Assembly (NCBI GenBank): GCA_030605565.1
Contig: JAUWIB010000089.1
Location: forward strand, 12,197 to 76,196
DNA length: 64,000 bases
From: a bacterium
GTDB taxonomy: Bacteria; Zixibacteria; MSB-5A5; GN15; FEB-12
Direction of reading: 5' to 3'
A program made the translations under genes and the position numbers. Below the pieces are notes generated by a model. That model made no database searches. It saw only the letters and a list, made by a program, of their open reading frames with translations, and was not told the DNA's origin. Below, in pieces: positions 572-58,924 of this stretch; position 1 is the stretch's first letter, and each line of letters opens with the position of its first letter.

Positions 572-628
572 GGGGGGGCGGGGTGGTGGCGCATGGACGA
601 CCATGTCTGAGAAACCTATACATTGTGA

Positions 629-8355: not shown

Positions 8356-8363
8356 AATACCAC

Positions 8364-18755: not shown

Positions 18756-21700
18756 GTGTATCTAAAGCGGCTCGACATCCTCGGTTTCAAATCATTCGCA
18801 AATAAAACGGCATTGCATTTCTCTACCGGCATAACGGCCATCGTCGGACCAAACGGTTGCGGCAAGACCAACATACTCGATGCTATGCGCTGGGTACTTG
18901 GTGAGCAGCGCGTCAGCCTCCTGCGCGGAAACAAGATGGAGGAGGTCATTTTCAACGGTACGCGCGATGTGAAATCGCTCGGCATGTCTGAGGTGACCTT
19001 GTCTCTGATCAACAACCGTGGTGTTCTGCCAACCGAATACAACGAAGTGCAGGTGACGCGGCGGCTGTTTCGCTCTGGTGAGTCGGAGTACTTGCTGAAC
19101 AAGGTTCCCTGCCGACTTCGTGATATCCATGACTTGTTCTACGACACGGGGATGGGCGCTCATTCGTACTCCGTTATTCAGCAGGATATGATCGATGCCG
19201 TCATTTCCGACAGGGCCGAGGAACGTCGTTTCCTCTTTGAAGAAGCGGCCGGCATCACCAAGTACAAACAGCGTAAGAAGGCGGCGTTGCGCAAGCTCGA
19301 GGCTACTGAGGGCGATATGCTGCGCCTGAATGATATCTACTCCGAGGTGCAAACGCAGGTTCGTTCGCTGAACCGACAGCAAAAGAAGGCACAGCGATAT
19401 CAGAATCTGCTTAATGAAATCAAGGACTGGGAACTGTACTTGAGCGGCGTTCGTCTGGCCAATGCTCAAACGGAAAAGCAGCAGTTGCGAGATGAATTAG
19501 GCACGCTGACCGACCGCCGCATGGAGCGAGAGGCGCTGGTCAATCGCGTCTCGTCTCAACTGGAGAACGACCGCAAGGAACAAATCGACCTCGAACAGGA
19601 CCTCAGTTCCATCAGCAACGAAGTGTTCGACGTTTCCGAGAAAGCTCATGGTCTCGAACGCGAGATATCCGTTCTGGTGGAGAAGCGGGCCAATGCCCGC
19701 TCACTAATCGAGCGCAATCACAACGATATCCAGGCTCTCAAGGCGCGCACTGAGATCCTTACCGAGCAGACTCAACAGAGTCATCAGGACTTGATCGACC
19801 AGAAAACGGAGCATGAGAATCGTGCCGAACGATTGACCGAGGCTGAGAGTGCACAGGCTGTCGCCGACCGGGAACTGCTTCAGGCGCGCGCGGTCAAAGA
19901 GGATGACAACAAGAAGCTGATTGACCTGGAGGGCAAGCTCTCCTCCGGGAAGACGGCAGACGACAACCTGCGTCGACAAGAACAGGAGATCGGCGAGATG
20001 GTGGCCGACCTGCAGCAACAAGTCTCACAGCAGCAGGCCCATCGTTCCCAGTTGCAGGCCCGCCTGGTCGAGGAACAACAAGCTCTGGCCGACCTCAAGG
20101 CCGACAAGGATGTCACTGAGGAGTCTGAAGCGGCGGTGTCGGAACGTATCGAACAGTTGATCGAGAAGGGGGAGGAGCTTTCGCTTGAGTTGTCCAATTT
20201 GGGCGCATCGTTGGAGGCCTGTCAGGCACGACGCAATTTGCTCGAGGACATGATTCTGCACTATGAAGGTTACGCTACCGGCGTGGTGGAGGTCATGGAG
20301 ATCAAAGACCGTTTTTCAGGCATTCACGGCACGGTCGCCGAGAAGTTTGTGCCGGCGGAAGGGCTTGAGGCGGCTATGGAGGCCGCCCTGGGTGAAATGG
20401 CCGGGTTCATCGTCTGCGACAATCGTCCGCACGCCGAACAGATCATCGAGTATCTCAAGACCGAGGGCAAGGGCAAGGTCGGCATCCTGGTGCCCGACAC
20501 CGGTACTATCAACCCGCTGGTGAAGCGGCCGGAAATCGAGTCGGAGAGTTTCCTCGGCTGGCTGGACCGCTCCGTTACAACGGATGACGAACTCAGACCG
20601 CTGATGCAGGCCGTGCTCTCACGCACCGCCGTGTTCAAAGCCGGCGCCGACCCGAAAGAGATACTTGAACGACTGCCGTACGGGTTCAGCGCCGTTTCCA
20701 CCGACGGTGTGCGTTACAGCCGAAACATCATTGCCGGCGGGGCTGAGGAAAAGTTTCCGTTGTTCCGCCGCGAGGAAAAGTTGGCTGAGCAGGACCGCAT
20801 GATTGCCGCGATTACTGAAAAGCAGGAGCTTGCACAGAAAAGCAAAGATCGCAACAATGCCGAGATAGCTGCCGCTCGCGCCGAGTCGACGCAATTGGCC
20901 GACAAGTTAGACAGCCTTACCGAAGAGCTTAACAAGGCCGGGCAGAAGACCAGCGAGACCGAGTACCGGTTGGGCACGATTGGGGATGAGCTCGCTCGGC
21001 TGGAAAAAGAACGCCGCAACCAGTCGGACAAACTCGAGAGGATTCGTAGTCAGCAGTACACGCTGGGCATCGACTTCGACCAACTGGCCGACCAGAAGCA
21101 GACGCTGGTCGGGAGCATGTCCAAAGCCGGCAACGATCTTGAATCTCTGGAAGCGAAAGTAACGGTTCTTCTCGATCAGGTGTCGAAGCTGCAAGTCGAG
21201 ATGGTCGAATCGCGCAGCCGCACCGAACAGATCGAAAGCAAGATATCCCACCTGACCGAGTTGAAGCTTGAAATCGAGAATACGACCGGCGCTAAGCAGA
21301 ACGAGATAGAGCGCGCCGATCTGGACATCACGAATGCTGATGAAAGAGTATCCGAACTTGAGCAGACTCTTAAAACAGTGTTCCGCAGTCGCACCGAGGC
21401 CACCGAACGTCAGAACCGGCTGCGAGGCATTCAGGCCGATGTCATGGCCCGCGTCACGCAGCGCGAGGAACAACTGAAGGAAGTCCGCACCGATAAGGAC
21501 TCGTTGAGCGAGCAAATACACCAGATCGAAATGCGTATCAACACCTTTGACTCCGAGATAGGTGCTGTCCGGCAGCGCATTCGTGATGAGTACGAACTTG
21601 ACATCGAAACTGTCGAAATAGTGCGACCCGACGACAAGCGTACCGATGAGGAAGCACGCGCCTACCTCGCCGACCGGAAAGAGCGGTTTAAGAACTTCGG

Positions 21701-22472
21701 CGCCGTCAATCTGCTGGCGCTGGAAGAGTACCGCAAGGCGTGTGAGAGAGAGTCGTTCCTCTCCGAGCAGCTTAATGATCTGACCACAGCCAAGGATGAC
21801 CTTAAGACAACTATCTCGAAGATCAACCAGACCGCCAAGCAGCTCTTTCTGGAGACGTTCGAGAGAGCCCGCGGCAATTTCAAGAGACTTTTTGTGGATC
21901 TCTTCACCGGGGGCGAGGCCGATATCTACCTTGAGTATCCATCCGAACCGCTGGAATCGGATATCATGATTATCGCCAGGCCGCGCGGTAAGAAGCTGCT
22001 GTCGATCACTATGATGTCCGGCGGTGAGCGCGCCCTGACCGCGATTGCGCTGCTGTTCAGCCTCTATCAGGTCAAACCCTCGCCGTTCTGCATCCTTGAT
22101 GAGATCGATGCACCCCTTGATGATGCCAACTGTCGGCGTTTTCTGAATATCATTCACAAGTTCTCTCTGCAAACCCAGTTTGTCATCATCACGCATAATA
22201 AAATCACTATGGAGACGGCCGAAAACCTCTACGGCGTGACCATGGAGCAGGCGGGTATCTCACAACTTGTGGCCGTCAAGTTCAACGATGTCGCCGAGGA
22301 TGCGCAGACCGGTCATCTGGTTATCAATGTTGCTGAACCTTCAGGTGAGGCGGTGGCGCCCCGGCCTGATCTAACGCTGACACACGAAGTCGACACCGTG
22401 TTGCCGGACAACGTCGCCGAACGGATGGACCCTGACCTCAGCATGGCCGACGACAAGAAGACCGACGACTGA
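18756..22472 (+). CDS. smc: Chromosome segregation protein SMC
   Basis: It has Walker A (GPNGCGKTN), long coiled coils, a hinge (GYATGVVE...), the signature LSGGERALTAIALLF and Walker B (ILDEIDAPLDDAN). The start is GTG with GGAGG 6 nt upstream. Confidence 0.95.
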   Translation: MYLKRLDILGFKSFANKTALHFSTGITAIVGPNGCGKTNILDAMRWVLGEQRVSLLRGNKMEEVIFNGTRDVKSLGMSEVTLSLINNRGVLPTEYNEVQVTRRLFRSGESEYLLNKVPCRLRDIHDLFYDTGMGAHSYSVIQQDMIDAVISDRAEERRFLFEEAAGITKYKQRKKAALRKLEATEGDMLRLNDIYSEVQTQVRSLNRQQKKAQRYQNLLNEIKDWELYLSGVRLANAQTEKQQLRDELGTLTDRRMEREALVNRVSSQLENDRKEQIDLEQDLSSISNEVFDVSEKAHGLEREISVLVEKRANARSLIERNHNDIQALKARTEILTEQTQQSHQDLIDQKTEHENRAERLTEAESAQAVADRELLQARAVKEDDNKKLIDLEGKLSSGKTADDNLRRQEQEIGEMVADLQQQVSQQQAHRSQLQARLVEEQQALADLKADKDVTEESEAAVSERIEQLIEKGEELSLELSNLGASLEACQARRNLLEDMILHYEGYATGVVEVMEIKDRFSGIHGTVAEKFVPAEGLEAAMEAALGEMAGFIVCDNRPHAEQIIEYLKTEGKGKVGILVPDTGTINPLVKRPEIESESFLGWLDRSVTTDDELRPLMQAVLSRTAVFKAGADPKEILERLPYGFSAVSTDGVRYSRNIIAGGAEEKFPLFRREEKLAEQDRMIAAITEKQELAQKSKDRNNAEIAAARAESTQLADKLDSLTEELNKAGQKTSETEYRLGTIGDELARLEKERRNQSDKLERIRSQQYTLGIDFDQLADQKQTLVGSMSKAGNDLESLEAKVTVLLDQVSKLQVEMVESRSRTEQIESKISHLTELKLEIENTTGAKQNEIERADLDITNADERVSELEQTLKTVFRSRTEATERQNRLRGIQADVMARVTQREEQLKEVRTDKDSLSEQIHQIEMRINTFDSEIGAVRQRIRDEYELDIETVEIVRPDDKRTDEEARAYLADRKERFKNFGAVNLLALEEYRKACERESFLSEQLNDLTTAKDDLKTTISKINQTAKQLFLETFERARGNFKRLFVDLFTGGEADIYLEYPSEPLESDIMIIARPRGKKLLSITMMSGGERALTAIALLFSLYQVKPSPFCILDEIDAPLDDANCRRFLNIIHKFSLQTQFVIITHNKITMETAENLYGVTMEQAGISQLVAVKFNDVAEDAQTGHLVINVAEPSGEAVAPRPDLTLTHEVDTVLPDNVAERMDPDLSMADDKKTDD

Positions 22473-22485
22473 TCGGTACCGCAGT

Positions 22486-23397
22486 ATGTTCAATGCTTTT
22501 CAGAAGCTGAAGGATTCCCTCAGTCGCACCAAGGACAATATCCTCGGAAAGATTTCGGAGGTCGTTCTTCGGCGGCGCATTGATGATGATCTGCTCGAGG
22601 AGATCGAGGAGATCCTGATCGAGGCCGATGTCGGGGTGCCCGCGACCATGAGACTGATCGAAAGCGTCAAGAAGAGAGCGCGCGAGCGGAAATTGTCTGA
22701 GGGGAGCGAAGTTGTGGGGCTGTTGAAAGAAGAGATTGCCGCCATCCTGACGCAGAGTCAGGCGGTCGGTTCCGCCGATTCTTCCGGGCCGGTCATCTGG
22801 TTGATCGTCGGTGTCAACGGCGTCGGCAAAACTACCACGATCGGCAAACTGGCTACGTTGTTTGCCGCTGAAGGCAAGAATACGATGATTGCCGCCTGCG
22901 ACACATTCCGGGCGGCGGCGATTGAACAGATAGCTATCTGGGCGGAACGCAGCAACGTCGAAATGGTTCGCTCTCAGAGTGGCTCCGACCCTGCAGCCGT
23001 GGCTTTTGATGCCGCCAAAGCGGCGAAGGCCAGAGGCGTCGATATACTTTTGGTTGATACGGCCGGCCGTTTGCACACCAAGGCAAATCTGATGGAAGAG
23101 TTGAAAAAGATCCGTCGAGTCGTCAACAAGGCGGCGCCGGATGCGCTGGTTTGCAGCAAGTTGATTATCGATGGTTCCACCGGTCAGAATGCTCTGTCAC
23201 AGGTCAAGGTGTTCACCGAGGCGGTCGGGTGTGATGGGATCATCGTGACCAAGCTGGACGGCACGGCCAAGGGTGGCGTCATGATCGCCGTCTCCGAGGA
23301 ACTGGGTGTCCCGGTGGAGTTCATCGGACTGGGAGAGGGGATCGACGACCTGCAACGGTTTGACCCGGAGAAGTTTGCTGAGGCGCTGTTCGCATGA
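22486..23397 (+). CDS. ftsY: Signal recognition particle receptor FtsY
   Basis: GVNGVGKTTTIGKLA, DTAGRLH and TKLDGTAKGG are present. It is a short form without a long A-domain. Confidence 0.95.
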   Translation: MFNAFQKLKDSLSRTKDNILGKISEVVLRRRIDDDLLEEIEEILIEADVGVPATMRLIESVKKRARERKLSEGSEVVGLLKEEIAAILTQSQAVGSADSSGPVIWLIVGVNGVGKTTTIGKLATLFAAEGKNTMIAACDTFRAAAIEQIAIWAERSNVEMVRSQSGSDPAAVAFDAAKAAKARGVDILLVDTAGRLHTKANLMEELKKIRRVVNKAAPDALVCSKLIIDGSTGQNALSQVKVFTEAVGCDGIIVTKLDGTAKGGVMIAVSEELGVPVEFIGLGEGIDDLQRFDPEKFAEALFA

Positions 23398-23792
23398 AAA
23401 CACTAACGGTCGAGACGCAAGTGCGGCGGCAGATGATCGATGTTACGGCGCGGGTGCAGGAGATTGTCACTGAGAGCAATCGCCCCTCAGGCCTCGTCGT
23501 CTGTTTCGTCCCGCACACAACTGCCGCCATAACCATCAATGAAAACGCCGACCCGGATGTTGCTCGCGACATTCTGTACAAGCTGGGCAAAGAGATTCCG
23601 CCGGACGACGGTTACCATCACCTCGAAGGTAACTCGGACGCCCATATCCAGGCGTCACTTTTGGGCGCTTCGCAGCAGATACTGTTTGAGAATCGTCGCC
23701 TGGTGCTGGGACGCTGGCAGGCTGTTTACTTCTGCGAATTCGACGGGCCTCGACAGCGCCGCCTGATTGTCGAGGTTATGCCGTTTGCTTAA
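23394..23792 (+). CDS. yjbQ: YjbQ/UPF0047-family protein (secondary thiamine-phosphate synthase-like)
   Basis: HTTAAITINENADPDV, HLEGNSDAHIQASLLG and LGRWQAVYFCEFDGPR are present. It overlaps ftsY by ATGA. Confidence 0.85.
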   Translation: MKTLTVETQVRRQMIDVTARVQEIVTESNRPSGLVVCFVPHTTAAITINENADPDVARDILYKLGKEIPPDDGYHHLEGNSDAHIQASLLGASQQILFENRRLVLGRWQAVYFCEFDGPRQRRLIVEVMPFA

Positions 23793-24255
23793 GGTCCACC
23801 TTATCTGTGTGGGGAAAGATAAGGATGCATGGATCACCGACGGGTGTGCTCATTTCAAAAAGTTGCTTTCGCGGTATGCTGAGGTTTCCTGGCGCGTCCT
23901 GCCTGCGGAGAAGTCCGGTTCCGGGTTGTCGGCTTCCGAAGTGAAGAAGCGAGAAGCGATCCGCATACTGAAAGCTCTCGACAAGGGGTTCCATATCGCT
24001 TTGGCGGACAAGGGTACTGACCTGGATTCGCACGGACTGGCCCGACAACTGGAAAACTGGCAGACGCGCTGCGGCGGTTGTATTGAGTTTATCATTGGTG
24101 GGGCTTACGGTCTTGATGAGTCTGTCCTGAATCGCGCGGATTTGGTACTGTCGTTGTCGCCGCTTACTTTTTCGCACCAATTGGTGCGGCTGGTTCTGCT
24201 GGAGCAGCTCTACCGCGCCTTCTCTATTCTGCACAACACCGACTATCACAAATAG
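23785..24255 (+). CDS. rlmH: 23S rRNA (pseudouridine1915-N3)-methyltransferase RlmH
   Basis: (M)LKVHLICVGK..., FIIGGAYGL and LSLSPLTFSHQLVRLVLLEQLYRAFSI are present. The start is uncertain: TTG at 23785, or the track start TTG at 23767. Confidence 0.85.
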   Translation: MLKVHLICVGKDKDAWITDGCAHFKKLLSRYAEVSWRVLPAEKSGSGLSASEVKKREAIRILKALDKGFHIALADKGTDLDSHGLARQLENWQTRCGGCIEFIIGGAYGLDESVLNRADLVLSLSPLTFSHQLVRLVLLEQLYRAFSILHNTDYHK

Positions 24256-24311: not shown

Positions 24312-27300
24312 TTATTTCAGCAGAACCATTTTCTTGGTATCGGTGAAGCTGCCGGCATCGAGGCGATAGAAGTAAACGCCTGATGCAGCCGTGCCGCCAC
24401 GGGAATCGAGACCGTCCCAGGTTATCGTCTGATGACCGGCCGGGGCGTGCCCGCTGAAGGAGCGCACCAGCTTACCGGTGACATTGTAGATGTGAAGCGT
24501 CCAGTCGGCCGTCTGCGGCGTGGAGAAGCTGATTGAGGTCGCCGGGTTGAACGGATTCGGGTAGTTTTGCGACAGTGAGAACTCGGTCGGCAACTCGCCG
24601 CCCTTGTTGACACATCGGTAGGGCCTGCCCTGGTAGTCGACGATCTCCTTGCGCTTCAGAATCGGCGCCGTGTCACCGCTATACGTAATCTCAACCAAAC
24701 GGTGCTCGCCGGGTTCGATTAGGTCCGTTCCGAGATTCCAGATGAGGATCCGCAGTTCGCCGTCAACAACAGCGTGCATGAGATTCATATCTTCGGCGGC
24801 AGTTGCCAATTGAGGTATGTCGATTGTCGTCGCGTCGTTCACGTCGAAGACGAACAGAGCCGCGCCGATTTCGCCGACCGCATCAGTGGATACACTAAGG
24901 TGACCGTCGCTGTATTCGGTCGTGACAAACAACTCCTCCGGATAAGGGCTCAACTTGGGAATCGGGTCGGCATCGCCAATGATGACCCGGATTAAGAGCA
25001 CCAGGTCGGCTACGCTGAGGGTGACACCGTCGGCGTTGACGTCGGTGGCGGCAATCTGACCGGCCACATTCACCACGAACACGCTTAGGCCCTTGACGAA
25101 GTAGTTGGAGAAGACTACCGCGTCGGCGATCTCGTAAGCCACGCCGTTGAGGTTGACGTCACCGCGATCGTCCAGCGAATCGGGATGGGTGACGCAGATG
25201 CCGCCGTTGATATACTCGATACAGCGGATCGGGTCGATCTTGCCGCCGCCGAAACAGTCATCACGGGTACCCATGCCGAAGGGACGAGACGACTCCGGGT
25301 AGTTGATGTCGTCGTTTTCATCCCAGATCATCGAACCCTCGAAGTTGAGAATACGTACATCCACGAACAGATCGTAACCGGAGGTGTCGGAGAAAGCATT
25401 GTCGGCGCAGGAATACCATGCAAAGTTGATCGGCAGGAACTGATCGCCAAGGTTCTGGTCATTGGCCACCTGGAATTGCATCTCGACCAGGACACCGTTC
25501 GGGAACAAAGTCTCGTGCGGAGGGTGATTGGGACCGTTGTTTATGTCGGCGATTCCGACCAGACGAACCAGACCGGAAGGGCAGGAGGCGCCGCAGTCAG
25601 CGGCGCCGATGCGGTACTCGAAGTACTCCCAGCCATCCACCGCAGAACCTTCGATGCCGGCATAAGTGAACGCCATTACCGAGGCGTCGTAGGCCAGCAG
25701 GATGTCAAAGCCGCCCAGCCACTCGCGCGTCTCGATGTTCAGGTCAACGGTCTTAAGAAGACCGACCGGGGTGCAACTGCCGCCGTCGATCGACACCCGC
25801 ACGCAGACGTCGCAGTCCTCAAGTTCCTGAATGTCGACGAAGAAAGACCCGACAGTGATGTTGCAGCCGTCGTCCACTTCGAAGCAGAACTCGTACAGTC
25901 CGAAGGCGTCCGGCAGGAAGCAGACCCGACCGCTGTCGTCGGTAATCAACTCGAACCCATCAGGGCCGCAGGTTTGTGTCAGGGTCACGCTGTCTTCAAG
26001 ATCGGTGGCGTAGATGCCGTCGACGCAGACCAGGGTCGTGTCGTCGCTACAGCGTTCAAATACCAGCGTTTCTTCCGGCAGGAACAACTGAGGCGCCTGA
26101 TCACCGGTGACGTTGATTGTCGTCACACAGGTGTCGGCATCGCAGCGCCCGGTTGCAATCAGGGTGATATCATAGGAACCGGGCTGGTCGATTATCACGC
26201 AAACTTCGCCATCGGCATAGGATCCTTCGGGTTCCACGGTGATTATCGGATCAGTTCCGGTCACTGTCACCGGATAGCACAACTCAACCGGATCGGTCAG
26301 GCAGAGCAGGGTGTCAATGATGCCGGGGCAGGTGATGACAGGGGGCTGGGGCACCTGAATATCGAGATCAAACTCGCAGGTGTCAACGCCGCACTGGGCT
26401 TCGGCTGTCACCATAATGTTATACAGTCCGGTCTCATCGATATAAACACACAGCTCGCCGGTGGCGGGGTCGTATGAACCGTTCGGCAAAACCGTTACGA
26501 CCGCATCGCCTGGACTGATCGGCATCGTGATGCAAATGGAATCCGCTGTACACAGAGTGTCGTATACCGTCGTGGGAGGACAAATGATCAAGGGTGACCC
26601 ACCCGGCAAAATAGTAACAACCGTCGTGTCGCAGGCTGTTTCACCACAGGCGTCACGCACGGACACTACGACAGTGTGAATACCGAAGTCGGTCGGGATG
26701 AAACATACTTCATCTTCAACGATCTGACCGTGCGAAGATGACACCTCTATTATGTTATCATCAACATCACTATAGGTGATAGGGATACAGACCTCGTATG
26801 GCTCGCACACGGTCAAACTGGTGTCCGGGCCGGAAACAATCTCCGGAGGGCTGTTGAAGTCCGCGGTAACCGTAAAGCTGCAAGTGTCGGAGTTGCAGAT
26901 CGACGTAGCGATCATCGTGATCTCAAGTGACCCGGCCTCGAGCACCGGTACACAAACCTGATTCTCGCTCAGGTACGCCGGTTCCGTCACACTTACCATT
27001 CCTACGGATGCTGAGACTGTATAGTCCAGACACAGGGTGTCGGGACCACAGACCAGCAGAGCGGTGTCGGCGGGGCAGGTGATTACCGCCTCGTCCGGAA
27101 TGGTAACCTCAACATACACCACGCAGGTATCACTGTTGCACTCGGCATTGCCGATCACCGTGATCATGTAGATACCGGCAGTGTCCGCCGGGAAGCAGAG
27201 TTCGCCCTCGCCGTAAGTGCCGATTGACGAAGTGACGGTGAAGTTATTGCCAATGATTTCAAGTGGTACGCAGACTTCGGTCGGACCGCAGATCGGTTCG

Positions 27301-30300
27301 GCTTGTAAGGTATCCTGCGGACAGTTGATCTGCACGAATTCACCGATGTTAACCGTGACACAAGCATCCAGCGTGTCGGCCAGACCGCATACATCGATAG
27401 CTATAACCTCGACGCAGTAAAACCCGGAGCTTTCGGCGGTGAAACATATTTCGCCGGTCGCTTCGTCGTAGTAGCCGATGTCGGTCAGTACCTCAACCAG
27501 ATTGTCTTCGGCGTCACCAAATACTATAGGTACGCAGATGTTGGGCTGGCAGGTGGTGATAACAGAGTCGGCCCAATCGTAGATGATAAACGGCGCAGTA
27601 TTGAATTCAATCGTGACCGCCATAGTGTCGCTGTCCTCTTCGCCGCATTCATCGACAGCCGTCACGATCAGGTTGTAAACGCCGGCTGTGTCAGCGGTGA
27701 AGCAGACGCGGCCGTGCAGCGGATCGTACAAGCCGCCGGTGACCATGACATCAGCGATATTTCCGTCCGGATCGTACACACCCACCGGCACGCAGACCTC
27801 CGACGGATCGCAGAACATGATGCTGCTGTCGGGTGGCAGGAGAACGAGGGGATCGTGGTTGCACTCGATTGTCACTGTGAAACTGCAACTGAAGCTGCCG
27901 CAAGGGGTGACAACCTCGAGGGTGACTTGGTTGGTATTACCACACTCGGAGATGAAACAGACAGATTGCAGTTCATCATCGAACCAGGTGTTGATGCCGG
28001 TCACGTTGACGGTTGCTATCTCAGGGATGCCGCCGATCGGCAGGCAAAAAGTGTCACCGACACAAGTGAAGATAGTCGTGTCGTTCGGACAGACAAGCTC
28101 TATCCCCTGGTCGGTCAGGATTGTCACATAAGCGGTGTCGGTATCGACCATGTTGCAACTGTCGGTAACCGTCACGATAATCTCGAAAGTGCCACTGTCG
28201 TAAGGTGTGAAACAGACCTGCCCGTCGCTGTACGAACCGCGGTTGACATCAATACTCTGGATATTGTCATCCGGATCGGAGATGTCTATCGGCAGGCATA
28301 TCGCCTGCGGATAGCACAGGTATACCGTTGTGTCGGGCATTCCTGTCGCGACCGGCGGGCTGTTGATGTCCACGCTTATGTTGATGGTGTCGGCGGCCGT
28401 CAGGTCGCACGTATCAACCACTGTCACGATCATGGTGTAATTGCCCGGTCCGTCAGGCATGAAGCAGACTTGCGAGGTAACCTCATTGTAGATACCCAGG
28501 CTGGTTGTTAATGACTGGTAAACGCTGATCGTGTTGACATCGACGCAGATTTCGCCCAGTTCACACAAGTCGAGATCGAGATCGTCACCAAGATCGACAA
28601 ATGGCGGCGCGCCGGAGGTCACAGTGACTGTCACCGTATCCGCCGCCGTTGCACCGCACTCGTCGGTGGCTTCGACGATCAACTCGTAGGCGCCGTCATG
28701 GTCAACCTCGAAACAGACCTTGCCGGTCTGCGGATCGTAACTGCCGAGATTCGGAGTTACGCTAAGCAGGTTGCCGTCCTCGTCACCAACGGTAACGTCG
28801 ACACAAACTTCGGTGAGGCCGCACAAACCGACCTCGAAATCGGCGCCAAGATCAACATACGGCGGTTCGTTCAGGTCAACCGTGACCACCGTTGTGTCAC
28901 TTGCAGTAGCGCCGCAGGAATCGGCCGCAGTGACGATTATCATGTAGCTGCCGGCAGTGTCGGCGTTGAAGCAGACCTGCCCGGCGTCGCTGTCATATGT
29001 CCCATTATTGACTGTGACAGTGAGAACATCCATGTCGGCATCCGTGACGGCGACATCAAAGCAGATTTCCGACGGTTCGCAAAGGAACGCTGCAAAGTCA
29101 TCTGCCGTGGTGACACTTGGCGCGTGGTTGCCCTCGATTGTCACCGGCACGATGCAGGTGTCGGAGTGGTCACAACTGTCCACGACCTCAATGACGATGT
29201 CAAACTGGTCATTGCCGACGGCATCGAAGCAAACCGATCCCGCGTCGTAGATTGCATTCTGCGAGAGGATGTTCACCGTCAGGTCCGGATCGCCGGGGTC
29301 GAAGTCAAAACAGAGTGTCTGCGGTTCACATATCGAGAACAACTGAGGTTCCGGACACTCAACGACCGGGGGGCGGTCGAGCAGTATGGTAATCCTGATC
29401 GTATCCGGATCGCACGGCGGACACTCGGGGCATGCTTCGCTGTAAATCTTGGTGCCGGTACAAGGATCGGTAACACAATATTCAAATATGTATGTGGCTG
29501 AGTCGACGTCGTCCGGCATGAAGCAGGTCTGTCCGGAACTGTCGGTCAACATCGTAAACCCGCCCGGACCGGATTCCTGGGTGATGCTAAGAATATCGCC
29601 GTCAGCATCGGTTGCGACAACGTCGAAACAGATCTCCTGAATGTTGCACAGATAGATGGTAGAGTCAAACGTCAGGAGAATCGGCGGACTGTTTATTGCT
29701 ATCGTGTCGTAGACAAAACCGGTATCGCCGGCGCAAGTGTCATAGGCCGCCACTTCAAAGGTGTAGACACCGGATGTATCCGGGAAGTAACTGATCAATC
29801 CCGTCTGGGTATCGACAGTGCCGACGCCGGACAGCATGATGAAGGTCATCGGGTCGCCATCGGCGTCAAAAGCAGTAACGCCAACCTCGCGGAGTTGGTC
29901 GGGTTCACACAAGGTCGCTGAGGTAAACCGATCATAGACAATCGGCGGTGTATTGATCTCGATGGTCACTGTGAATTCGGCGTCACAGTAGGCGCCGCAA
30001 CTATCGAAGCAGCGGACAGTGATAGTACCGCCGACGCTCTTGTCCGGAGTATAGCACCAGTAACCGTCAACGATTTCACCCACACCGGAGAAGACCTCAC
30101 AACGATCGAAATTGCCGTTAGGGTCGGTAGCCGACACCGGTAGACAGATTTCTTCAGGTTCGCAAAGGACGATAGTGGTATCATTCGGCGGGTTGCAGAT
30201 GGGCGGGTCGTTGAGATCAACGGTCACGATAGTCTCACAAGAACTCTCGGCGCCGCAAGCGTCGAGAGCTGTCAGGACGATGACGTTAGGTCCTTCAATC

Positions 30301-33300
30301 GGCGTGAAGCAGACAGTGCCGTTAGCCATATTGACCTGAGCGCCGTTGACTGTTACGATAACAGACTCCAGCGCACCCTCCGGGTCGGACGCCGCAAAGC
30401 CACCGATGCAAACGTCACTCATGTCGCAGGTCCAGAGGGTGGTGTCACCGGGGCAGGTGACTATCGGCGGCTGATTGATTTCAAAGGTAACGGTGAATGT
30501 CTGGTCGCAGTAGGCACCGCATGAATCGCTGGCGCGAACTGTGACCGTGACTGTTTCGGCGCCTACTGGCGTGTAGCACCACTGGTCGCCGTTGATAGCG
30601 CCGGGACCGGAGATCAGTTCCCATCCGTAGAGGTTGCCGTCCGGGTCATCGGCTACGAGTGGCAGGCAGAGTTCCTGCGGGCCGCAGTTGAAGAGGGTGG
30701 TGTCGGTTGGCATCAGGCAAACCGGCTCGCTGTTGAGAATAACCTCGATGACGGCATCGCACCAACTGGTATCACCGCAATCATCAACGGCATAGAGAAT
30801 CATCGAGTTGGCGCCTTCGGTCGGCGCGAAGCAGACGCTGTTTTCGATGACCGGGTAGTCGCCGCCGTTGACGGTGACCCATATAGTGTCAAGATTCCCG
30901 TCCTCATCTATCGCGCCAAAACCCTCGACACAGATTTCATCATCCAGGTTGCATACGAAAACCGGTTCGAGGAGATCGACACAGGTAACCGCCGGTGGTG
31001 CGTTCAGGTCGAACGTTACGGTGAAGCTGCTTTCACAGGTAGCGCCGCATTCATCGGTGCACTGGATTGTGACGGTGATAGTCTCATCGCCGGACGGAGT
31101 GTAAGTCCAGAGTCCATTGATGAGTTGTCCCGGACCGCTGACGACTGAACAACCGGTCAGGTTGCCGTCGATGTCGTCGGCACTAATCGGCAAGCTTACT
31201 TCGGCCAAATCACATTGGAAAATCGTAGTGTCGTTCGGTGTGTTGCAGGTCGGCGGAGTATTCGGCAGAATCGGGACAACCGACTGACACTGGTCCTGAG
31301 CGCCGCAGCTATCAATTGCTGTCACCACAATGATATTGTCACCGGCCATCGGCGTGAAACAAATCTGTCCTTGATCCCATGTGACCGGCACTCCGTTGGC
31401 GGTAACAGTAACGCTGGCCAGATTTCCGTTGGCATCAGAGACCAGGAAGTTATCCAGGCAAATCTCGGAGAGATCGCAGACCAATACAGGATCAGGGAAG
31501 TCGGGACAGGCGACTGTCGGCGGCTGGTTCATCTCCAGCGTTACGGTGAATGTCTGGTCGCAGTATGCGCCGCACGAATCCAGAGCGCGCACGGTGACAG
31601 CTAATTGTTCCGCCTTATCTCCGCCATAGCACCACTGGTCACCGTTAAGGTAGCCGGGACCGGAGATGAGATCCCATCGGTCAAAGTTTCCATCGCCATC
31701 GCCGGCCGTCAGCGGAAGGCAGATTTCGATCAAGTCGCACAGGAATAGTGTAGTGTCGTTCGGACCTTCGCAGACCGGCTCTGAGTTGAGGGTAACATCA
31801 ATAACTGCACTGCAGATGCTCATGGCGCCGCAACTGTCGGTCGCCAATAGCTGAACTTCATTGAAACCCTCTATCGGCGGGAAGCAGATGGAACCATCAC
31901 TAAGTGGAGTCGACTCGCCATTGGCTATGGCAATTACGGACTCAAGATTGCCGTCCTCGTCAGTAGCTGCGAAACCGCTGAGGCTGAGGCAGAGTTCTTC
32001 AAGGTTGCACACCAGAATCGGATCGAAGGTGTCAGGACAGGTTACCACGGGATGTGCGTTTAAATCAAAGTCGACCGTAAAGCTGCTCTCGCAGGTTGCG
32101 CCACAGTCGTCGGTGCACTGTATTGTGACAGTAACAGTCTCATCACCGTCCGGAATATAGAACCAATTGCCGTCCACAATCTCGCCGGGACCGCTCGTGA
32201 TCGTGCAACCGATCAGGTTGTCGTCAACGTCCACGCCCGACACCGGCAACGAGATGCCCACCGCACCACAGTAGAAGATACTCGTGTCGTTGGGGACATC
32301 ACAGACAGGAGCCTCGTTGAAGAGCACGGTCACGAATATCTCATCGGCATCCTCACCGCCGCAGTCATCAACCGCCGTCACCACGACCTGATACGTACCG
32401 GCGGTGTCGGCGGTGAAGCAGACTTGTCCGGTGGCGGCGTTATAGATGCCACCGTCGACTTGGATGTTTGATATATTGTTATTAGCGTCGCTGATGCCGA
32501 CCGGCAGGCAAATAGCGCTCGGACTACACAGCATCATAGTCGTATCCGGCGGCAACAGCACCAGCGGGTCAACGTTACATTCGACCGTCACCGTGAACTC
32601 ACAGGTGTAAGTGCTGCATGGCGTGTGCACCATGATCTGGATGTTGTTCTGATTGGAACACTCAGTGTAAAAACAGACCGAATGCGTGGCGTCGTCGTAC
32701 CAGGTGTTGAGTCCCAGGACGTCAACAGTGATATCATCCGACCGGGGAATGCCGCTCAACGGGAGACAGATGGTATCCTGCACGCAGACAGACAGGGTAG
32801 TGTCATTAGGACATTCGATGACGATATCCTGGTCGGTCATAACGGTGAGGTTGATAGTAGTCGAAGCGGACTCTCCGCATTCATCAGTGGCCGTCACGAC
32901 TATTTGGTAGTTGCCCGCGGCGTAGGGTGTGAAACAGACCAGTCCGTTATCGTAGTAACCCTGACTGGTAGTAATTTCGACAATATTCTGGTCGGCATCA
33001 TTGATATCAACCGGCAGACAGATTGCCTGCGGGAAGCACAGGTAGAAGGAAGTATCAGCGACCGCGCTCACTGTCGGCGCCTGGTTGATCGACACCGTGA
33101 TATCCATCGTGTCCGCAGCCACCAGACCACAGGTGTCGGTGACCTCGACGATCAAGTTGTACAGCCCGTCACCTTCGGGTGTAAAACAGACCTGGCCGGT
33201 CTGAACGTCGTAAGCGCCGAGATTAGTTGTCAGCGATCCGTACTCGGCGATAGTAGTAACGTCCACGCAAATCGATTCCCCCCCGCAAAGAAGGGTATCG

Positions 33301-35162
33301 AAATCGTTCGGCAGAATCACAAACGGATCCACACCGGGATCGGCGGTGATTGTTACCGTATCTACTGCCGTGACGCCACAGGCATCAACGGCCTCGACAA
33401 TCAGATCGTAGGAGCCGGGCTCCTGAATGGTCATGCAGACCTGACCCTCGGCAACGTGCCCCAGGTTGGTAGTAACGTCGACGATGTTGTCATCGACATC
33501 AATCAAATCAAGAGCGATGCAGATATCGCGTGGATAGCAGGGATAGATGGTCGTGTCAACACCCAGCGAAACTTGTGGAGACTGATTGAATGTCACCGTC
33601 ACGGCGACCGTGTCAGACGCTGTCTGCCCGCAGGTGTCGGTCACTTCGACGATCATGTCATAGACGCCGTCCATCTCAGGAGTAAAACAGACCTGTCCGA
33701 CATCAGCGTTATAGATTCCAAGGTTGGTGGTGAGATTGGCGAAGGCATCGATAGTAAGCACGTCGATGCATATCTCAGTTGGCTCACACAAGAATCGCTC
33801 AAAGTCGGGGCCGAGCTCGACAAACACTGTCGGTCCCGGGTCGGCGGTGATGTTCATAGTTGCAACCGAGGTCTCGCCGCAATTGTCAATAACCGTAACT
33901 TCCAACGGGTAATCGCCCGGCTGGTTGATTGTGATGCAAACCTGACCGTTGGCATAAGCACCGATACTCGGTGTAATACTCACGATGTTGTCGTCAACGT
34001 CGGCTACCGTCACCGGCACGCAGACTTCCTTCGGATAGCAGGGATAAACCGTCGTGTCCGGCGGGAGATCGACTGTCGGATCACTGTTCATAGTAATCTC
34101 AAAGGTAGCGGTGCATTGGTCGCTCTGACCTGTGCTGTCGGTTACCGTTACATTGATGTAATAGTATCCGGTAGTGTCGGGGGTGAGGCAAAGCTCTCCG
34201 GTAACCGGATCGATAGTGCACGGCAACTCACCGGGAATCGTGAACAATAGATCGCCGGCGCCGTCATAGACTACGGTCGTCGGTAAGCAAACCGTCTCAC
34301 CGGCGCAGACAAAAAACTGACCGGTCGAACATTCGATCTCAACAGGATCCCAGATTATGTCGAACCTGGTGCAGTCGATCGAGGCGAGAATCTTGACGCG
34401 ATTATCAGGGTTGCAAGCCGAGTTGGGCGGGTCATCCGGTCCCGGCTGATCTTCTCCGGCGTACTTGACGCCGATAGTGAACAGTCCGACCTCGGTCGCT
34501 GTCAGGGTGGCCGTGGCCACGCCGTTCTCGTCGGTGACAGCAGTTGCTGTCGGGTCACCCTCTATCGGTATCCCACATTCTTCCTGGTGGAGGTAGAACC
34601 CGATCAGCCGATCCGGCATTGGGGCGTAAACTCCATCGCAACAGTCCTGCTCCAGCAGAACCGTCACCTCGTATGGCACCTCGGTCATGATCGTAGCCGG
34701 CATTGATATGATGGTCAAACGACTATCGATTTCGGTCAGAGGCGCACTGGCCTCAACATCGTAGCCAGAGGCGGTGACGATAATCGGCAGCCAGGCGTGA
34801 AACTCGTCTTCGACTACCCATAGCGCCTTGATGGCGCCATCGGCAGTAGCCTGGACGTCGAACTGTGCCAGTTCAACGTTGCTGCCCGACTGATTCTGGT
34901 GCAACACCAGTATCGAAACCGTCTCATCGGAGGCAAAACCACTCCCCTCAATGAATACGGTATCTCCCTGGGCACGACCTGCCGACTGCAAGTCCAGTCG
35001 CGGTGATTCATCACCGACGACAGGCAGTGGCGACTCCGATCCGGCTGGGTTGGTATCTCCGGCAGCAAAAACCGGCAAGGCACAAAAGACCAGGCCGATA
35101 GCTATAAACAGTAATCTCTGACACCTCGATCTTATCATCAGGTCCTCCAAAAAATTCATCAA
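24312..35162 (-). CDS. Giant secreted Cys-rich tandem-repeat surface protein with C-terminal cohesin-like domain, dockerin and T9SS C-terminal sorting domain
   Basis: The product is 3,616 aa with a signal peptide (LLFIAIGLVFCALPVFAAG). Roughly 30 modules of ~95 aa share PxDTT..C....(I/V)C(L/V)P...D.D.N...G.VCF.P...G.Y..(I/V)V.(A/V).D.CG. The cohesin-like block reads VRVSIDGG...FDILLAYD. The dockerin has two DVN(L/A)(N/D)G loops. The CTD reads LSQNYPNPFNPATSISF...GVYFYRL. Confidence 0.9.
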   Translation of the reverse strand: MMNFLEDLMIRSRCQRLLFIAIGLVFCALPVFAAGDTNPAGSESPLPVVGDESPRLDLQSAGRAQGDTVFIEGSGFASDETVSILVLHQNQSGSNVELAQFDVQATADGAIKALWVVEDEFHAWLPIIVTASGYDVEASAPLTEIDSRLTIISMPATIMTEVPYEVTVLLEQDCCDGVYAPMPDRLIGFYLHQEECGIPIEGDPTATAVTDENGVATATLTATEVGLFTIGVKYAGEDQPGPDDPPNSACNPDNRVKILASIDCTRFDIIWDPVEIECSTGQFFVCAGETVCLPTTVVYDGAGDLLFTIPGELPCTIDPVTGELCLTPDTTGYYYINVTVTDSTGQSDQCTATFEITMNSDPTVDLPPDTTVYPCYPKEVCVPVTVADVDDNIVSITPSIGAYANGQVCITINQPGDYPLEVTVIDNCGETSVATMNITADPGPTVFVELGPDFERFLCEPTEICIDVLTIDAFANLTTNLGIYNADVGQVCFTPEMDGVYDMIVEVTDTCGQTASDTVAVTVTFNQSPQVSLGVDTTIYPCYPRDICIALDLIDVDDNIVDVTTNLGHVAEGQVCMTIQEPGSYDLIVEAVDACGVTAVDTVTITADPGVDPFVILPNDFDTLLCGGESICVDVTTIAEYGSLTTNLGAYDVQTGQVCFTPEGDGLYNLIVEVTDTCGLVAADTMDITVSINQAPTVSAVADTSFYLCFPQAICLPVDINDADQNIVEITTSQGYYDNGLVCFTPYAAGNYQIVVTATDECGESASTTINLTVMTDQDIVIECPNDTTLSVCVQDTICLPLSGIPRSDDITVDVLGLNTWYDDATHSVCFYTECSNQNNIQIMVHTPCSTYTCEFTVTVECNVDPLVLLPPDTTMMLCSPSAICLPVGISDANNNISNIQVDGGIYNAATGQVCFTADTAGTYQVVVTAVDDCGGEDADEIFVTVLFNEAPVCDVPNDTSIFYCGAVGISLPVSGVDVDDNLIGCTITSGPGEIVDGNWFYIPDGDETVTVTIQCTDDCGATCESSFTVDFDLNAHPVVTCPDTFDPILVCNLEELCLSLSGFAATDEDGNLESVIAIANGESTPLSDGSICFPPIEGFNEVQLLATDSCGAMSICSAVIDVTLNSEPVCEGPNDTTLFLCDLIEICLPLTAGDGDGNFDRWDLISGPGYLNGDQWCYGGDKAEQLAVTVRALDSCGAYCDQTFTVTLEMNQPPTVACPDFPDPVLVCDLSEICLDNFLVSDANGNLASVTVTANGVPVTWDQGQICFTPMAGDNIIVVTAIDSCGAQDQCQSVVPILPNTPPTCNTPNDTTIFQCDLAEVSLPISADDIDGNLTGCSVVSGPGQLINGLWTYTPSGDETITVTIQCTDECGATCESSFTVTFDLNAPPAVTCVDLLEPVFVCNLDDEICVEGFGAIDEDGNLDTIWVTVNGGDYPVIENSVCFAPTEGANSMILYAVDDCGDTSWCDAVIEVILNSEPVCLMPTDTTLFNCGPQELCLPLVADDPDGNLYGWELISGPGAINGDQWCYTPVGAETVTVTVRASDSCGAYCDQTFTVTFEINQPPIVTCPGDTTLWTCDMSDVCIGGFAASDPEGALESVIVTVNGAQVNMANGTVCFTPIEGPNVIVLTALDACGAESSCETIVTVDLNDPPICNPPNDTTIVLCEPEEICLPVSATDPNGNFDRCEVFSGVGEIVDGYWCYTPDKSVGGTITVRCFDSCGAYCDAEFTVTIEINTPPIVYDRFTSATLCEPDQLREVGVTAFDADGDPMTFIMLSGVGTVDTQTGLISYFPDTSGVYTFEVAAYDTCAGDTGFVYDTIAINSPPILLTFDSTIYLCNIQEICFDVVATDADGDILSITQESGPGGFTMLTDSSGQTCFMPDDVDSATYIFEYCVTDPCTGTKIYSEACPECPPCDPDTIRITILLDRPPVVECPEPQLFSICEPQTLCFDFDPGDPDLTVNILSQNAIYDAGSVCFDAVGNDQFDIVIEVVDSCDHSDTCIVPVTIEGNHAPSVTTADDFAAFLCEPSEICFDVAVTDADMDVLTVTVNNGTYDSDAGQVCFNADTAGSYMIIVTAADSCGATASDTTVVTVDLNEPPYVDLGADFEVGLCGLTEVCVDVTVGDEDGNLLSVTPNLGSYDPQTGKVCFEVDHDGAYELIVEATDECGATAADTVTVTVTSGAPPFVDLGDDLDLDLCELGEICVDVNTISVYQSLTTSLGIYNEVTSQVCFMPDGPGNYTMIVTVVDTCDLTAADTINISVDINSPPVATGMPDTTVYLCYPQAICLPIDISDPDDNIQSIDVNRGSYSDGQVCFTPYDSGTFEIIVTVTDSCNMVDTDTAYVTILTDQGIELVCPNDTTIFTCVGDTFCLPIGGIPEIATVNVTGINTWFDDELQSVCFISECGNTNQVTLEVVTPCGSFSCSFTVTIECNHDPLVLLPPDSSIMFCDPSEVCVPVGVYDPDGNIADVMVTGGLYDPLHGRVCFTADTAGVYNLIVTAVDECGEEDSDTMAVTIEFNTAPFIIYDWADSVITTCQPNICVPIVFGDAEDNLVEVLTDIGYYDEATGEICFTAESSGFYCVEVIAIDVCGLADTLDACVTVNIGEFVQINCPQDTLQAEPICGPTEVCVPLEIIGNNFTVTSSIGTYGEGELCFPADTAGIYMITVIGNAECNSDTCVVYVEVTIPDEAVITCPADTALLVCGPDTLCLDYTVSASVGMVSVTEPAYLSENQVCVPVLEAGSLEITMIATSICNSDTCSFTVTADFNSPPEIVSGPDTSLTVCEPYEVCIPITYSDVDDNIIEVSSSHGQIVEDEVCFIPTDFGIHTVVVSVRDACGETACDTTVVTILPGGSPLIICPPTTVYDTLCTADSICITMPISPGDAVVTVLPNGSYDPATGELCVYIDETGLYNIMVTAEAQCGVDTCEFDLDIQVPQPPVITCPGIIDTLLCLTDPVELCYPVTVTGTDPIITVEPEGSYADGEVCVIIDQPGSYDITLIATGRCDADTCVTTINVTGDQAPQLFLPEETLVFERCSDDTTLVCVDGIYATDLEDSVTLTQTCGPDGFELITDDSGRVCFLPDAFGLYEFCFEVDDGCNITVGSFFVDIQELEDCDVCVRVSIDGGSCTPVGLLKTVDLNIETREWLGGFDILLAYDASVMAFTYAGIEGSAVDGWEYFEYRIGAADCGASCPSGLVRLVGIADINNGPNHPPHETLFPNGVLVEMQFQVANDQNLGDQFLPINFAWYSCADNAFSDTSGYDLFVDVRILNFEGSMIWDENDDINYPESSRPFGMGTRDDCFGGGKIDPIRCIEYINGGICVTHPDSLDDRGDVNLNGVAYEIADAVVFSNYFVKGLSVFVVNVAGQIAATDVNADGVTLSVADLVLLIRVIIGDADPIPKLSPYPEELFVTTEYSDGHLSVSTDAVGEIGAALFVFDVNDATTIDIPQLATAAEDMNLMHAVVDGELRILIWNLGTDLIEPGEHRLVEITYSGDTAPILKRKEIVDYQGRPYRCVNKGGELPTEFSLSQNYPNPFNPATSISFSTPQTADWTLHIYNVTGKLVRSFSGHAPAGHQTITWDGLDSRGGTAASGVYFYRLDAGSFTDTKKMVLLK

Positions 35163-57904: not shown

Positions 57905-58924
57905 ATGAATGACACAATAGATGAGGATGAAATGCTTCTGAAACACAATAGATCGCTGCCACTGAGACCGCCCAGGTATTTAAGAACAGCGCTTCTCGGA
58001 CTGGTATTGCTTTGTATTGGCGTCGCCTGGATGCCTCACAACGCCTTGGCTCAGGCCAAAGTAGGCACTACCGGCGCCCAGTTCCTGGAGCTTGGCGTCT
58101 CGGCGCGGGCGATGGGTATGGCGGAGGCCTTTACAGCGGTCACGGACGACATCATGGCGGTATACTACAACCCGGCCGGTCTTACCTCGCTCTATGGCCG
58201 TGAGGTGGCATTCACTTACATCGACATGCCGGCCGATGTCGGCTACGGTTTCGGTGCTATTGGTCTGCCGCTGGAATCAATCGGCGGTGTCCTGGGGATA
58301 AGCGCGTACGGCTTGTCCTCCGGTGAAATGATCGAACGCACTTGGAGCAAGGGCCAACAAGAGGGTACCGGGCGGACTTTCGGATGGAACGACTTCGCTA
58401 TGGGTGTCAGCTATGGCCGGTATCTGACCGACCGGTTTTCGGTGGGTTTCACGGTCAAGTTTGTCGGTCAATTCGTTCACGACTACAGCGCCAGCGGTTG
58501 GTGTGCTGATGTCGGCACTATGTACGACACCGGCCACCGCGGCTTCAGAATCGCTATGATGATCAGTAATTTCGGGCCGGATATGACTATGATCAGCCAG
58601 TCCTATCCGTTACCGATCAACTTCAGGTTTGGTGGTTGCATCAACCTGGTTGAACAGGCGGATCACCTGGTGACCTTCGCGGCCGAGGGCTCCCACCCCT
58701 CGGACAACCTCGAGAAGTACAACACCGGTCTGGAATATACCTTTCGGGACCGTTTCTCACTGCGCGCGGGGCGCCGCTTCAACTATGACGAAGACGGCTT
58801 CACGGCCGGCGGCGGTCTTGCCTTGCCGTTTGGAGAAGAGAGTGAGATTCGTATCGATTACGCCTTCCAGGATTTCGGAATCCTGACGCAGGTTCACCGT
58901 TTCAGTATGGCCTTTGCGTTTTAG
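57905..58924 (+). CDS. PorV/PorQ-family outer membrane beta-barrel protein
   Basis: After the signal peptide comes GTTGAQFLELGVSARAMGMAEAFTAVTDDIMAVYYNPAGL, the signature N-terminal block of PorV/PorQ-type barrels. The protein ends in ...FSMAFAF. Confidence 0.7.
   Translation: MNDTIDEDEMLLKHNRSLPLRPPRYLRTALLGLVLLCIGVAWMPHNALAQAKVGTTGAQFLELGVSARAMGMAEAFTAVTDDIMAVYYNPAGLTSLYGREVAFTYIDMPADVGYGFGAIGLPLESIGGVLGISAYGLSSGEMIERTWSKGQQEGTGRTFGWNDFAMGVSYGRYLTDRFSVGFTVKFVGQFVHDYSASGWCADVGTMYDTGHRGFRIAMMISNFGPDMTMISQSYPLPINFRFGGCINLVEQADHLVTFAAEGSHPSDNLEKYNTGLEYTFRDRFSLRAGRRFNYDEDGFTAGGGLALPFGEESEIRIDYAFQDFGILTQVHRFSMAFAF

Follow-up and report, generated by a model that had tools for sequence, protein, structure and literature searches.

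The giant gene and its C-terminal cassette

This report concerns the C-terminal part of a giant surface protein encoded in a 64,000-nucleotide stretch of contig JAUWIB010000089.1 from a Zixibacteria bacterium (hereafter the window, with positions counted from its first letter). Positions 24312-25810 on the minus strand were the C-terminal ~500 codons of one open reading frame (ORF) without frameshifts (Table 1). This tail carries a divergent cohesin (Coh), a divergent dockerin (Doc), a small beta-sandwich named here the X module, and a C-terminal sorting domain (CTD) of a type IX secretion system (T9SS). The cassette is Coh-(Doc·X)-CTD, with all four parts on one chain.

An earlier note, made from the letters of the window, had placed a cohesin, a dockerin and a type A T9SS CTD on a single polypeptide. 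All strings quoted there were recovered at the same site on the minus strand: CVRVSIDGG starts at aa 3120 (window position 25805), GDVNLNG at aa 3334 (25163), ATDVNADG at aa 3372 (25049) and LSQNYPNPF at aa 3530 (24575). The note had also described a three-part tail with the dockerin immediately before the CTD. This description had to be amended to four parts, because the conserved X module of ~112 aa intervenes between the two.

Table 1. Features of the giant gene and its T9SS context, with positions in the window
Feature	Position	Strand	Basis
Giant secreted surface protein ORF	24312..35162	-	One intact ORF, 3,616 aa
Probable Sec signal peptide, MMNFLEDLMIRSRCQRLLFIAIGLVFCALPVFA followed by AG	35064..35162	-	n-h-c look of the translation, judged by eye
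Passenger of ~30 tandem immunoglobulin (Ig)-like repeats, ~85 aa each, with conserved Cys (Big_9, Big_13, PKD/cadherin-like)	25863..34265	-	Pfam and repeat analysis
Divergent cohesin (aa ~3120-3325, ~205 aa)	25188..25805	-	AlphaFold2 (AF2) fold, Foldseek, homologs over the Pfam PF00963 cut-off
Divergent dockerin (aa 3334-3397) with three helices and a pair of calcium loops of the form D-x-N-x-[ND]-G...D	24972..25163	-	Pfam, family profile against PDB
X module (aa ~3410-3519, ~112 aa), small eight-strand beta-sandwich with a cohesin-like fold	24606..24935	-	AF2 and Foldseek
Type A T9SS C-terminal sorting domain (aa 3530-3616)	24315..24575	-	TIGR04183, PF18962, FlgD_ig
PorV/PorQ-family outer-membrane protein, context, 33 kb from the giant gene	57905..58924	+	NCBIfam NF033709, 197.8 bits (cut-off 90)

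The N-terminus of the giant protein, ending in ...LLFIAIGLVFCALPVFA followed by AG, resembles a Sec signal peptide as judged by eye. The protein is very acidic (D+E 15.6% vs K+R 1.8%) and cysteine-rich (196 Cys). The Ig-like repeats occupy aa ~300-3100 and matched the Pfam models Big_9 (8.3e-26), Big_13 (2.7e-14) and K319L-like PKD (8.5e-13). The motif D/T/N-x-C-G recurs at 83-91 aa spacing along the protein, and every 100-aa segment compared by BLAST matched 12-31 other sites within the same protein. Four antisense ORFs of 265-541 aa lie opposite the giant gene (25185-26477, 27714-28511, 28698-29501 and 32625-34250, all on the plus strand). These are most likely artefacts of the repetitive coding sequence and not genes.

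The CTD passed the curated cut-offs of both TIGR04183 (46.9 bits vs 23) and PF18962 (34.4-37.2 bits vs 27), which confirms its type A assignment. The profile match spans aa 3534-3613 of 3,616 at the extreme C-terminus, and FlgD_ig scored 36-40 bits. When the window protein was scanned with NCBIfam, the CTD alone was matched, and the sole phmmer matches against PDB were FlgD-like and fell on the CTD. A profile of the whole cassette also matched the CTD structures 8glj_D and 8glk_D in PDB.

Cohesin, dockerin and X modules

A search with aa 3113-3529 returned 316 homologs, and 70 of them were aligned (alignment A1). Pfam Cohesin matched 18 of the 70 aligned members at E<=0.01. Homologs P0064 (26.8 bits) and P0086 (27.4 bits) exceeded the cut-off of 24.1 exactly where they align with the domain in the window, and P0003 reached 23.5 bits over profile positions 17-137 of 139. 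On the window protein the cohesin went undetected by Pfam, NCBIfam or phmmer against PDB. Neither the Cohesin nor the dockerin model of Pfam fired in 52 of the 70 members scanned, the window protein included.

The AF2 model of the three domains had a mean predicted local distance difference test (pLDDT) score of 89.7 and a predicted template modelling (pTM) score of 0.65. Its 19 best Foldseek matches in PDB were all cohesins at prob 1.0, with 3l8q at E=4e-10 and with TMt values of 0.76-0.77 for 1aoh, 0.75 for 5nrm and 0.72 for 3ul4_A. In the model, the cohesin shows a nine-strand core in which a short helix separates strand 6 from strand 7 and a Cys-bridged insertion follows strand 8. Both additions are features of type II-like cohesins. 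The whole-cassette profile found cohesins in PDB at E 0.4-0.8 only, which is consistent with this fold but not significant alone. The cohesin-like beta-sandwich of the earlier note was upheld by the homologs over the Pfam cut-off and by the top fold matches of the model.

Conservation differed among the strands of the cohesin. Strands 3, 5, 6 and 8 showed values of 0.69-0.81, compared to 0.41-0.56 for strands 1, 2, 4, 7 and 9. The 8-3-6-5 sheet is the canonical dockerin-binding sheet of cohesins. The conserved strands match this sheet, which may bind a dockerin here too.

For the dockerin, a family profile of 41 sequences (A2) was searched against 177,635 PDB sequences. Six matches were obtained at E<=10, and the top five were dockerins. 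The best was 3ul4_B (E=0.0017), aligned over both repeats, followed by 4dh2_B (0.021), 5nrk_B (0.032), 5m2s_B (0.05) and the dockerin region of R. bromii Amy10 (0.63). The sixth and last match, 2gas (E=1.9), was unrelated. At the aligned position in homologs, Dockerin_1 scored 20.1 bits in P0051 and 13.6 bits in P0086.

In both calcium loops, the family shows little or no variation at the ligand positions D1, N3, [ND]5 and G6 or at the closing Asp. Both loops comprise 13 residues compared to the canonical 12, with the last acidic ligand at position 13, and HMMER opens a one-residue gap in solved dockerins when they are aligned to the family profile. The two loop copies lie 38 residues apart (canonical ~35). 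AF2 predicted three helices (233-249, 254-260 and 272-283). The solved dockerins found with the profile, the invariant ligand positions and the three predicted helices bear out the two-loop dockerin that had been read from the letters. This module is the most conserved segment of the cassette (0.80, mean column identity 67%), which is consistent with constraints on more than one of its faces.

The AF2 model of the dockerin with X gave a pLDDT of 90.7 and a pTM of 0.87. Doc and X are predicted to form one rigid body, because this pTM is so high for a two-domain construct. The best Foldseek match of X was 2xdh (E=1.6e-7, TMt 0.65), followed by 4dh2_C, 6kgc_A, 2vn5_A and 1g1k_A, all cohesins; the folds of carbohydrate-binding modules (CBMs) of families CBM2 and CBM3 ranked below them. 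The structure 2xdh was also the fifth-best match of the whole cassette, and the cohesin dyad 3l8q topped the cassette list because X is also cohesin-like in fold. Using hhalign, no sequence relationship of X to the first cohesin or to the dockerin was detected (prob <1%). Thus, X is cohesin-like by predicted fold only. In the Foldseek list of the Doc+X model, which X dominates, no dockerin-specific fold match was visible. As modelled, Doc·X resembles the type II/III X-dockerin pair with the order reversed. A match of an ad hoc 'ctd' hidden Markov model (HMM) between the dockerin and X was dismissed as artefactual.

A chance motif is ruled out as an explanation of the cassette because of its family-wide invariance and the fold evidence.

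Distribution of the cassette and known systems

The size of the family was determined by an exhaustive HMMER scan of 1.84 billion representative proteins clustered at 50% identity. At a limit of E<=1e-3 the cassette was found in 1,618 clusters, and stricter limits of E<=1e-10 and E<=1e-30 left 1,340 and 708; most were from Zixibacteria. Two carrier types were salient: giants of 2,000-3,600 aa with one C-terminal cassette, and proteins with 2-6 tandem units. Among 261 retrieved proteins, at least 205 had the architecture Coh-Doc-X-CTD and ~25 had (Coh-Doc-X)2-3-CTD. The others included Coh-Coh-Doc-X, variants with four cohesins, and Doc-X units without a cohesin. The stoichiometry of Coh to Doc·X is not fixed at 1:1 in these architectures, as expected of partners that would bind in trans.

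Proteins P0122, P0126, P0136, P0142, P0146 and P0148 contain 3-6 tandem Coh-Doc-X units. Some of them end in a T9SS CTD, and others end in a canonical dockerin with 12-residue loops. P0136 has four consecutive cohesins ahead of a Doc-X.

The passengers of the cassette were Ig-like (Big_9, PKD, HYR, He_PIG, cadherin-like) or unknown. No enzyme domain was found among the passengers examined, namely those of the window protein, 10 homologs and 9 mid-size members.

A scan of species-representative genomes gave at least 471 relatives, and synteny was analyzed in the best 80 of them. These 80 came almost entirely from metagenome-assembled genomes (MAGs) of Zixibacteria, some labelled Ignavibacteriales, with one relative per genome. 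The nearest were CSMAG_2408 (95%) and CSMAG_2796 (92%). In ~65 of the 80 loci the giant gene and rlmH-yjbQ-ftsY-smc converge in the very arrangement seen in the window, where this block occupies 18756-24255 on the plus strand. The synteny is kept down to 42% cassette identity, which is unusually stable for the gene of a giant, repeat-rich surface protein. Therefore, the giant gene is a conserved orthologous gene of the phylum.

Using family-type cohesin, dockerin and X searches, exactly one cassette was found per locus in the window and the 80 related loci. Neither the 64-kb window nor ~900 kb of flanks from the 80 related genomes contained a further family-type cohesin or dockerin, and no other cohesin or dockerin gene of any kind was seen in the window. 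An HMM for canonical dockerins, built from locus L081, gave one weak match, in locus L009, and this match had no Pfam support. The L009 protein is encoded by an extra ORF of ~450 aa (7715-9103, plus strand) that separates the giant gene from rlmH. Its C-terminus is dockerin-like (custom HMM E=2e-8), and two repeats within it resemble cohesins when judged by eye; nothing was matched in Pfam.

The homolog P0055 (L081, 283-7885, plus strand) has an extra canonical cohesin, and a C-terminal canonical Dockerin_1 (52.5 bits) replaces the CTD. Its gene stands directly after three Dockerin_1-bearing genes, which encode a Peptidase_M14 with an InhA-like MAM domain, a PAD_porph protein and a 366-aa protein. 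This locus is a non-cellulosomal dockerin gene cluster. No such cluster was seen around the giant genes of Zixibacteria.

The cassette was compared to known cohesin-dockerin systems. Among the closest are the type II/III cohesin and X-dockerin pairs of clostridial and ruminococcal cellulosomes, such as C. thermocellum CipA XDocII with SdbA CohII (2b59/5k39) and A. cellulolyticus ScaA/ScaB (4u3s/3l8q). Common to both are a cohesin fold in which a helix separates strand 6 from strand 7 and strand 8 bears an insertion, a dockerin braced rigidly by an adjoining beta-sandwich (predicted in our case), and a location next to the cell (again predicted in our case) at one end of a surface protein of very large size. 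However, X lies C-terminal to the dockerin here, whereas cellulosomes have the order X-Doc, and X is cohesin-like here and an Ig-like module there. Furthermore, the cohesin and Doc·X of the present cassette share one chain, 8-10 residues apart, and the calcium loops comprise 13 residues. Anchoring is assigned to a T9SS CTD in a diderm instead of SLH domains (S-layer homology) or sortase, and neither enzymes nor CBMs are attached.

Non-cellulosomal cohesin and dockerin modules were reportedly surveyed by Peer et al. in 2009. The cassette resembles those of archaea, including the Archaeoglobus fulgidus cohesin 2xdh and the modules of anaerobic methanotrophic (ANME) archaea, in that cohesins and dockerins occur outside cellulose degraders. 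In ANME archaea, a dockerin and up to five cohesins were found in one protein (PMC9012536). According to work cited in that paper, archaeal cohesin and dockerin modules were verified to bind specifically, a precedent for the docking proposed below. In contrast to the archaeal modules, the present cassette comes from a bacterium of the Fibrobacteres-Chlorobi-Bacteroidetes (FCB) group, has four fixed parts including X and a T9SS CTD, and forms tandem arrays as a whole unit.

A bacterial parallel is the scaffoldin-like protein of Ca. Stygibacter (Cloacimonadota), 3,755 aa long, in which a T9SS CTD is combined with CBM2/3 and a tandem series of cohesins (Williams et al. 2021, PMC8542988). Both are giant cohesin proteins with a T9SS CTD from FCB-related candidate phyla, and surface attachment via the CTD was proposed for the Ca. 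Stygibacter protein (PMC8542988). By description, the two are set apart: the Ca. Stygibacter protein has many cohesins together with CBMs, and dockerins were reported on its partner enzymes (PMC8542988), whereas one Coh-Doc-X unit follows Ig repeats here and no enzyme partners were seen.

The cassette also resembles the C. perfringens GH84/GH33 cohesin-dockerin toxin complexes (2jh2, 2o4e, 2w1n, 2vo8), in which non-cellulosomal cohesins join large secreted proteins. Cohesin structures from C. perfringens turned up among both the sequence-profile and the fold matches of the cassette. Unlike in our family, their partners are glycoside hydrolases (GHs) on separate chains in a Gram-positive host, with neither an X pair nor T9SS.

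Giant T9SS adhesins of Bacteroidota (for example F. johnsoniae SprB and the CTD cargo of P. gingivalis) share the general layout of a signal peptide, a long Ig-like array, a beta-sandwich immediately before the CTD and the CTD itself. In the P. gingivalis cargo the domain before the CTD is Ig-like. SprB carries a type B CTD, compared to type A here, and we know of no cohesin or dockerin in these adhesins.

Non-cellulosomal cohesin and dockerin modules, the combination of a dockerin with multiple cohesins in ANME proteins, and a scaffoldin-like protein with a T9SS CTD in Cloacimonadota are already known. What appears to be undescribed in the literature searched is the fixed cassette Coh-(Doc·X)-CTD with loops of 13 residues, together with the tandem arrays that it forms and the syntenic giant protein that carries it across the phylum. 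No paper combining Zixibacteria with dockerin or T9SS was found there, and a 2025 review of cellulosomes mentions Gram-negatives only for engineered display.

Proposed assembly at the cell surface

We tentatively favor, short of calling it probable, the reading that the region serves, at the C-terminus, for assembly and anchoring of a giant, phylum-conserved, T9SS-exported Ig-repeat protein, and that family-internal docking in trans cross-links surface proteins. The export steps follow the T9SS model as established in P. gingivalis and F. johnsoniae. By analogy, Sec would take the giant protein across the inner membrane, and the type A CTD would route it through T9SS. The CTD would then be removed, and the new C-terminus just after X would be fixed to the outer membrane. 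With this anchor, Coh and Doc·X would therefore sit beside the cell surface, and the ~30 Ig-like repeats would project outward as an acidic, disulfide-rich fibre or adhesin. The calcium-loaded dockerin, which X presumably braces in cis in the manner of type II/III X-dockerin pairs, would bind the conserved 8-3-6-5 face of a same-family cohesin that belongs to a neighbouring molecule or unit. Such contacts may cross-link copies of the giant protein, along with its tandem (Coh-Doc-X)n relatives, and so build a surface layer or bundle that depends on calcium.

Several observations argue for this trans-docking reading. The architectures of the family look like those of interacting partners, with cohesins lacking a dockerin, Doc-X units lacking a cohesin, and tandem arrays. 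The variable stoichiometry of Coh to Doc·X, the conserved strands 3, 5, 6 and 8 and the near-invariant dockerin would also be in keeping with binding in trans. Self-docking or family-internal docking is plausible. Furthermore, the suggestion of the earlier note that cellulosome-type glue is carried here by T9SS export rather than by sortase/SLH anchoring fits the data, and a PorV/PorQ-family gene is present in the same window.

Other observations weigh against trans docking. Pfam Cohesin (PF00963) gave no match in the window protein even at E<=10, and Dockerin_1 (PF00404) reached 13.6 bits (E=0.081, aa 3334-3392) without reaching the cut-off of 22.9. The assignment of Cohesin and Dockerin_1 by profile thus stood in part: both stayed under their Pfam cut-offs on the window protein, whereas Cohesin in the homologs and the dockerin family profile against PDB were positive. 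The cohesin strands were numbered by their order alone and not on coordinates, and their conservation could reflect core packing. Mean-field direct coupling analysis (DCA) of 346 units (effective number of sequences, Meff, ~319; length L=386) gave few inter-domain pairs, which involved gap columns, and the dockerin is too conserved to covary. The analysis does not bear on the choice between binding in cis and in trans. To our knowledge, the T9SS of Zixibacteria is uncharacterised, and CTD cleavage and lipid anchoring have never been demonstrated in this phylum. The remaining points of this kind are those on which the next alternative is built.

This alternative, which we regard as possible rather than likely, is that Coh, Doc and X form a closed unit in cis. 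The three would be a rigid, calcium-stabilised super-domain that joins the Ig fibre to the outer-membrane anchor like a pedestal or stalk; rods would be formed by the tandem (Coh-Doc-X)n proteins, and a partner in trans would not exist. The order of the cassette is constant and its linkers are short (~8-12 aa) across the 346 units, and Doc·X is itself predicted to be rigid. The pTM of 0.65 for three domains lies above the ~0.5 that we estimated by our own arithmetic for two independent bodies, and some fixed arrangement of Coh and Doc·X is predicted from it. In addition, X is cohesin-like, so the dockerin may already hold a cohesin-like partner in cis. However, relatives have extra cohesins without Doc·X and Doc·X without a cohesin, and the canonical binding sheet of the cohesin is its most conserved surface. 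Dockerins also have two helices that are able to engage different surfaces, and all characterised cohesin-dockerin pairs act between chains or modules.

A stronger form of the trans-docking reading is, in our view, likewise possible rather than likely. Here, Coh-(Doc·X)-CTD would be an undescribed self-assembly cassette of Zixibacteria and some neighbours, in which a cis-buttressed dockerin and a type II-like cohesin polymerise the T9SS-anchored giants with dedicated (Coh-Doc-X)n scaffoldins, giving a lattice or fibre on the surface that depends on calcium.

It is unlikely that the giant protein is a T9SS-anchored scaffoldin for heterotypic partners, in which the cohesin, X or both would capture dockerin-bearing enzymes or cargo encoded elsewhere, cellulosome-like as in Cloacimonadota. 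Ca. Stygibacter offers a precedent, with its scaffoldin-like cohesin protein ending in a T9SS CTD and its dockerin-bearing peptidases and GHs (PMC8542988). The position of P0055, with its canonical cohesin and dockerin, after three Dockerin_1-bearing genes and the L009 ORF with a dockerin-like C-terminus adjoining the giant gene point in the same direction. However, the searches of the 64-kb window and the ~900 kb of flanks from 80 genomes yielded no other family-type cohesin or dockerin, and the lone canonical-type match, in L009, was weak and without Pfam support. Moreover, the cassette proteins examined carry no enzyme passengers, and the giant protein has just one full cohesin.

The weakest alternative, which we consider very improbable, takes both beta-sandwiches as CBM-like lectin modules for the cell's own lipopolysaccharide or extracellular polysaccharide (LPS/EPS) or for a substrate, with the dockerin as a calcium-binding spacer; cohesins and CBMs do have the beta-jelly-roll fold in common and X also matched CBM2/CBM3 folds at E ~1e-4 to 1e-3 (3ndy_E, 6qfs, 1exg, 2cwr, 4c8x), but both domains match cohesins better than CBMs, the Pfam Cohesin cut-off is exceeded in homologs, and near-invariance of the whole dockerin is hard to square with a mere spacer.

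A true cellulosome was considered separately and rejected, because no enzyme or CBM is attached and there is no multi-cohesin scaffoldin here. The window protein has one cohesin and one cohesin-like X, with no CBM and no enzyme domain, which is not the make-up of a scaffoldin. The term cellulosome applies to the glue and not to the function.

Few non-covalent links between proteins are known to be as strong as cohesin-dockerin pairs, which are a textbook trait of Gram-positive cellulosomes. The present cassette is noteworthy as an abundant one (>1,300 clusters) that is divergent from the Pfam models and fixed to a T9SS signal in an uncultured phylum. Among the passengers examined, its carriers are exclusively giant Ig-repeat proteins of non-enzymatic kind. 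Should the modules bind each other, they would show how Zixibacteria build their cell surface and extend cohesin-dockerin assembly to T9SS-anchored proteins of diderms. Protein engineering would also gain a new orthogonal Coh/Doc·X pair whose calcium loops have 13 residues, and the phylum would have a conserved marker surface antigen. If the self-assembly reading is true, the cassette would be a diderm, T9SS-based and non-enzymatic counterpart of the cellulosome anchoring system. If binding occurs in cis only, a cohesin-dockerin pair would have been turned into a structural super-domain.

The PorV/PorQ-family protein of the window scored under the equivalog cut-offs for both PorQ and PorV. Its gene stands directly after that of a 1,161-aa outer-membrane protein with CarboxypepD_reg, Plug and beta-barrel domains (54396-57881, plus strand) and before a 713-aa ORF (58945-61086, plus strand) without a Pfam or NCBIfam match. 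The genes in 54396-61086 may form a T9SS-related or TonB-type outer-membrane cluster.

The remaining genes of the window were mostly housekeeping. Among the others, a 1,399-aa fusion of two BcrAD_BadFG ATPase domains and DUF2229, of the CoA-enzyme activase type, was found at 11788-15987 (minus strand). At 49515-52460 (plus strand) lies the gene of a 981-aa sigma-54 activator whose long N-terminal region is TPR/MalT-like. A 320-aa protein encoded at 41506-42468 (plus strand) showed a weak partial match to flagellinolysin-type HExxH metalloproteases (NF033876, 55 bits compared to a cut-off of 205).

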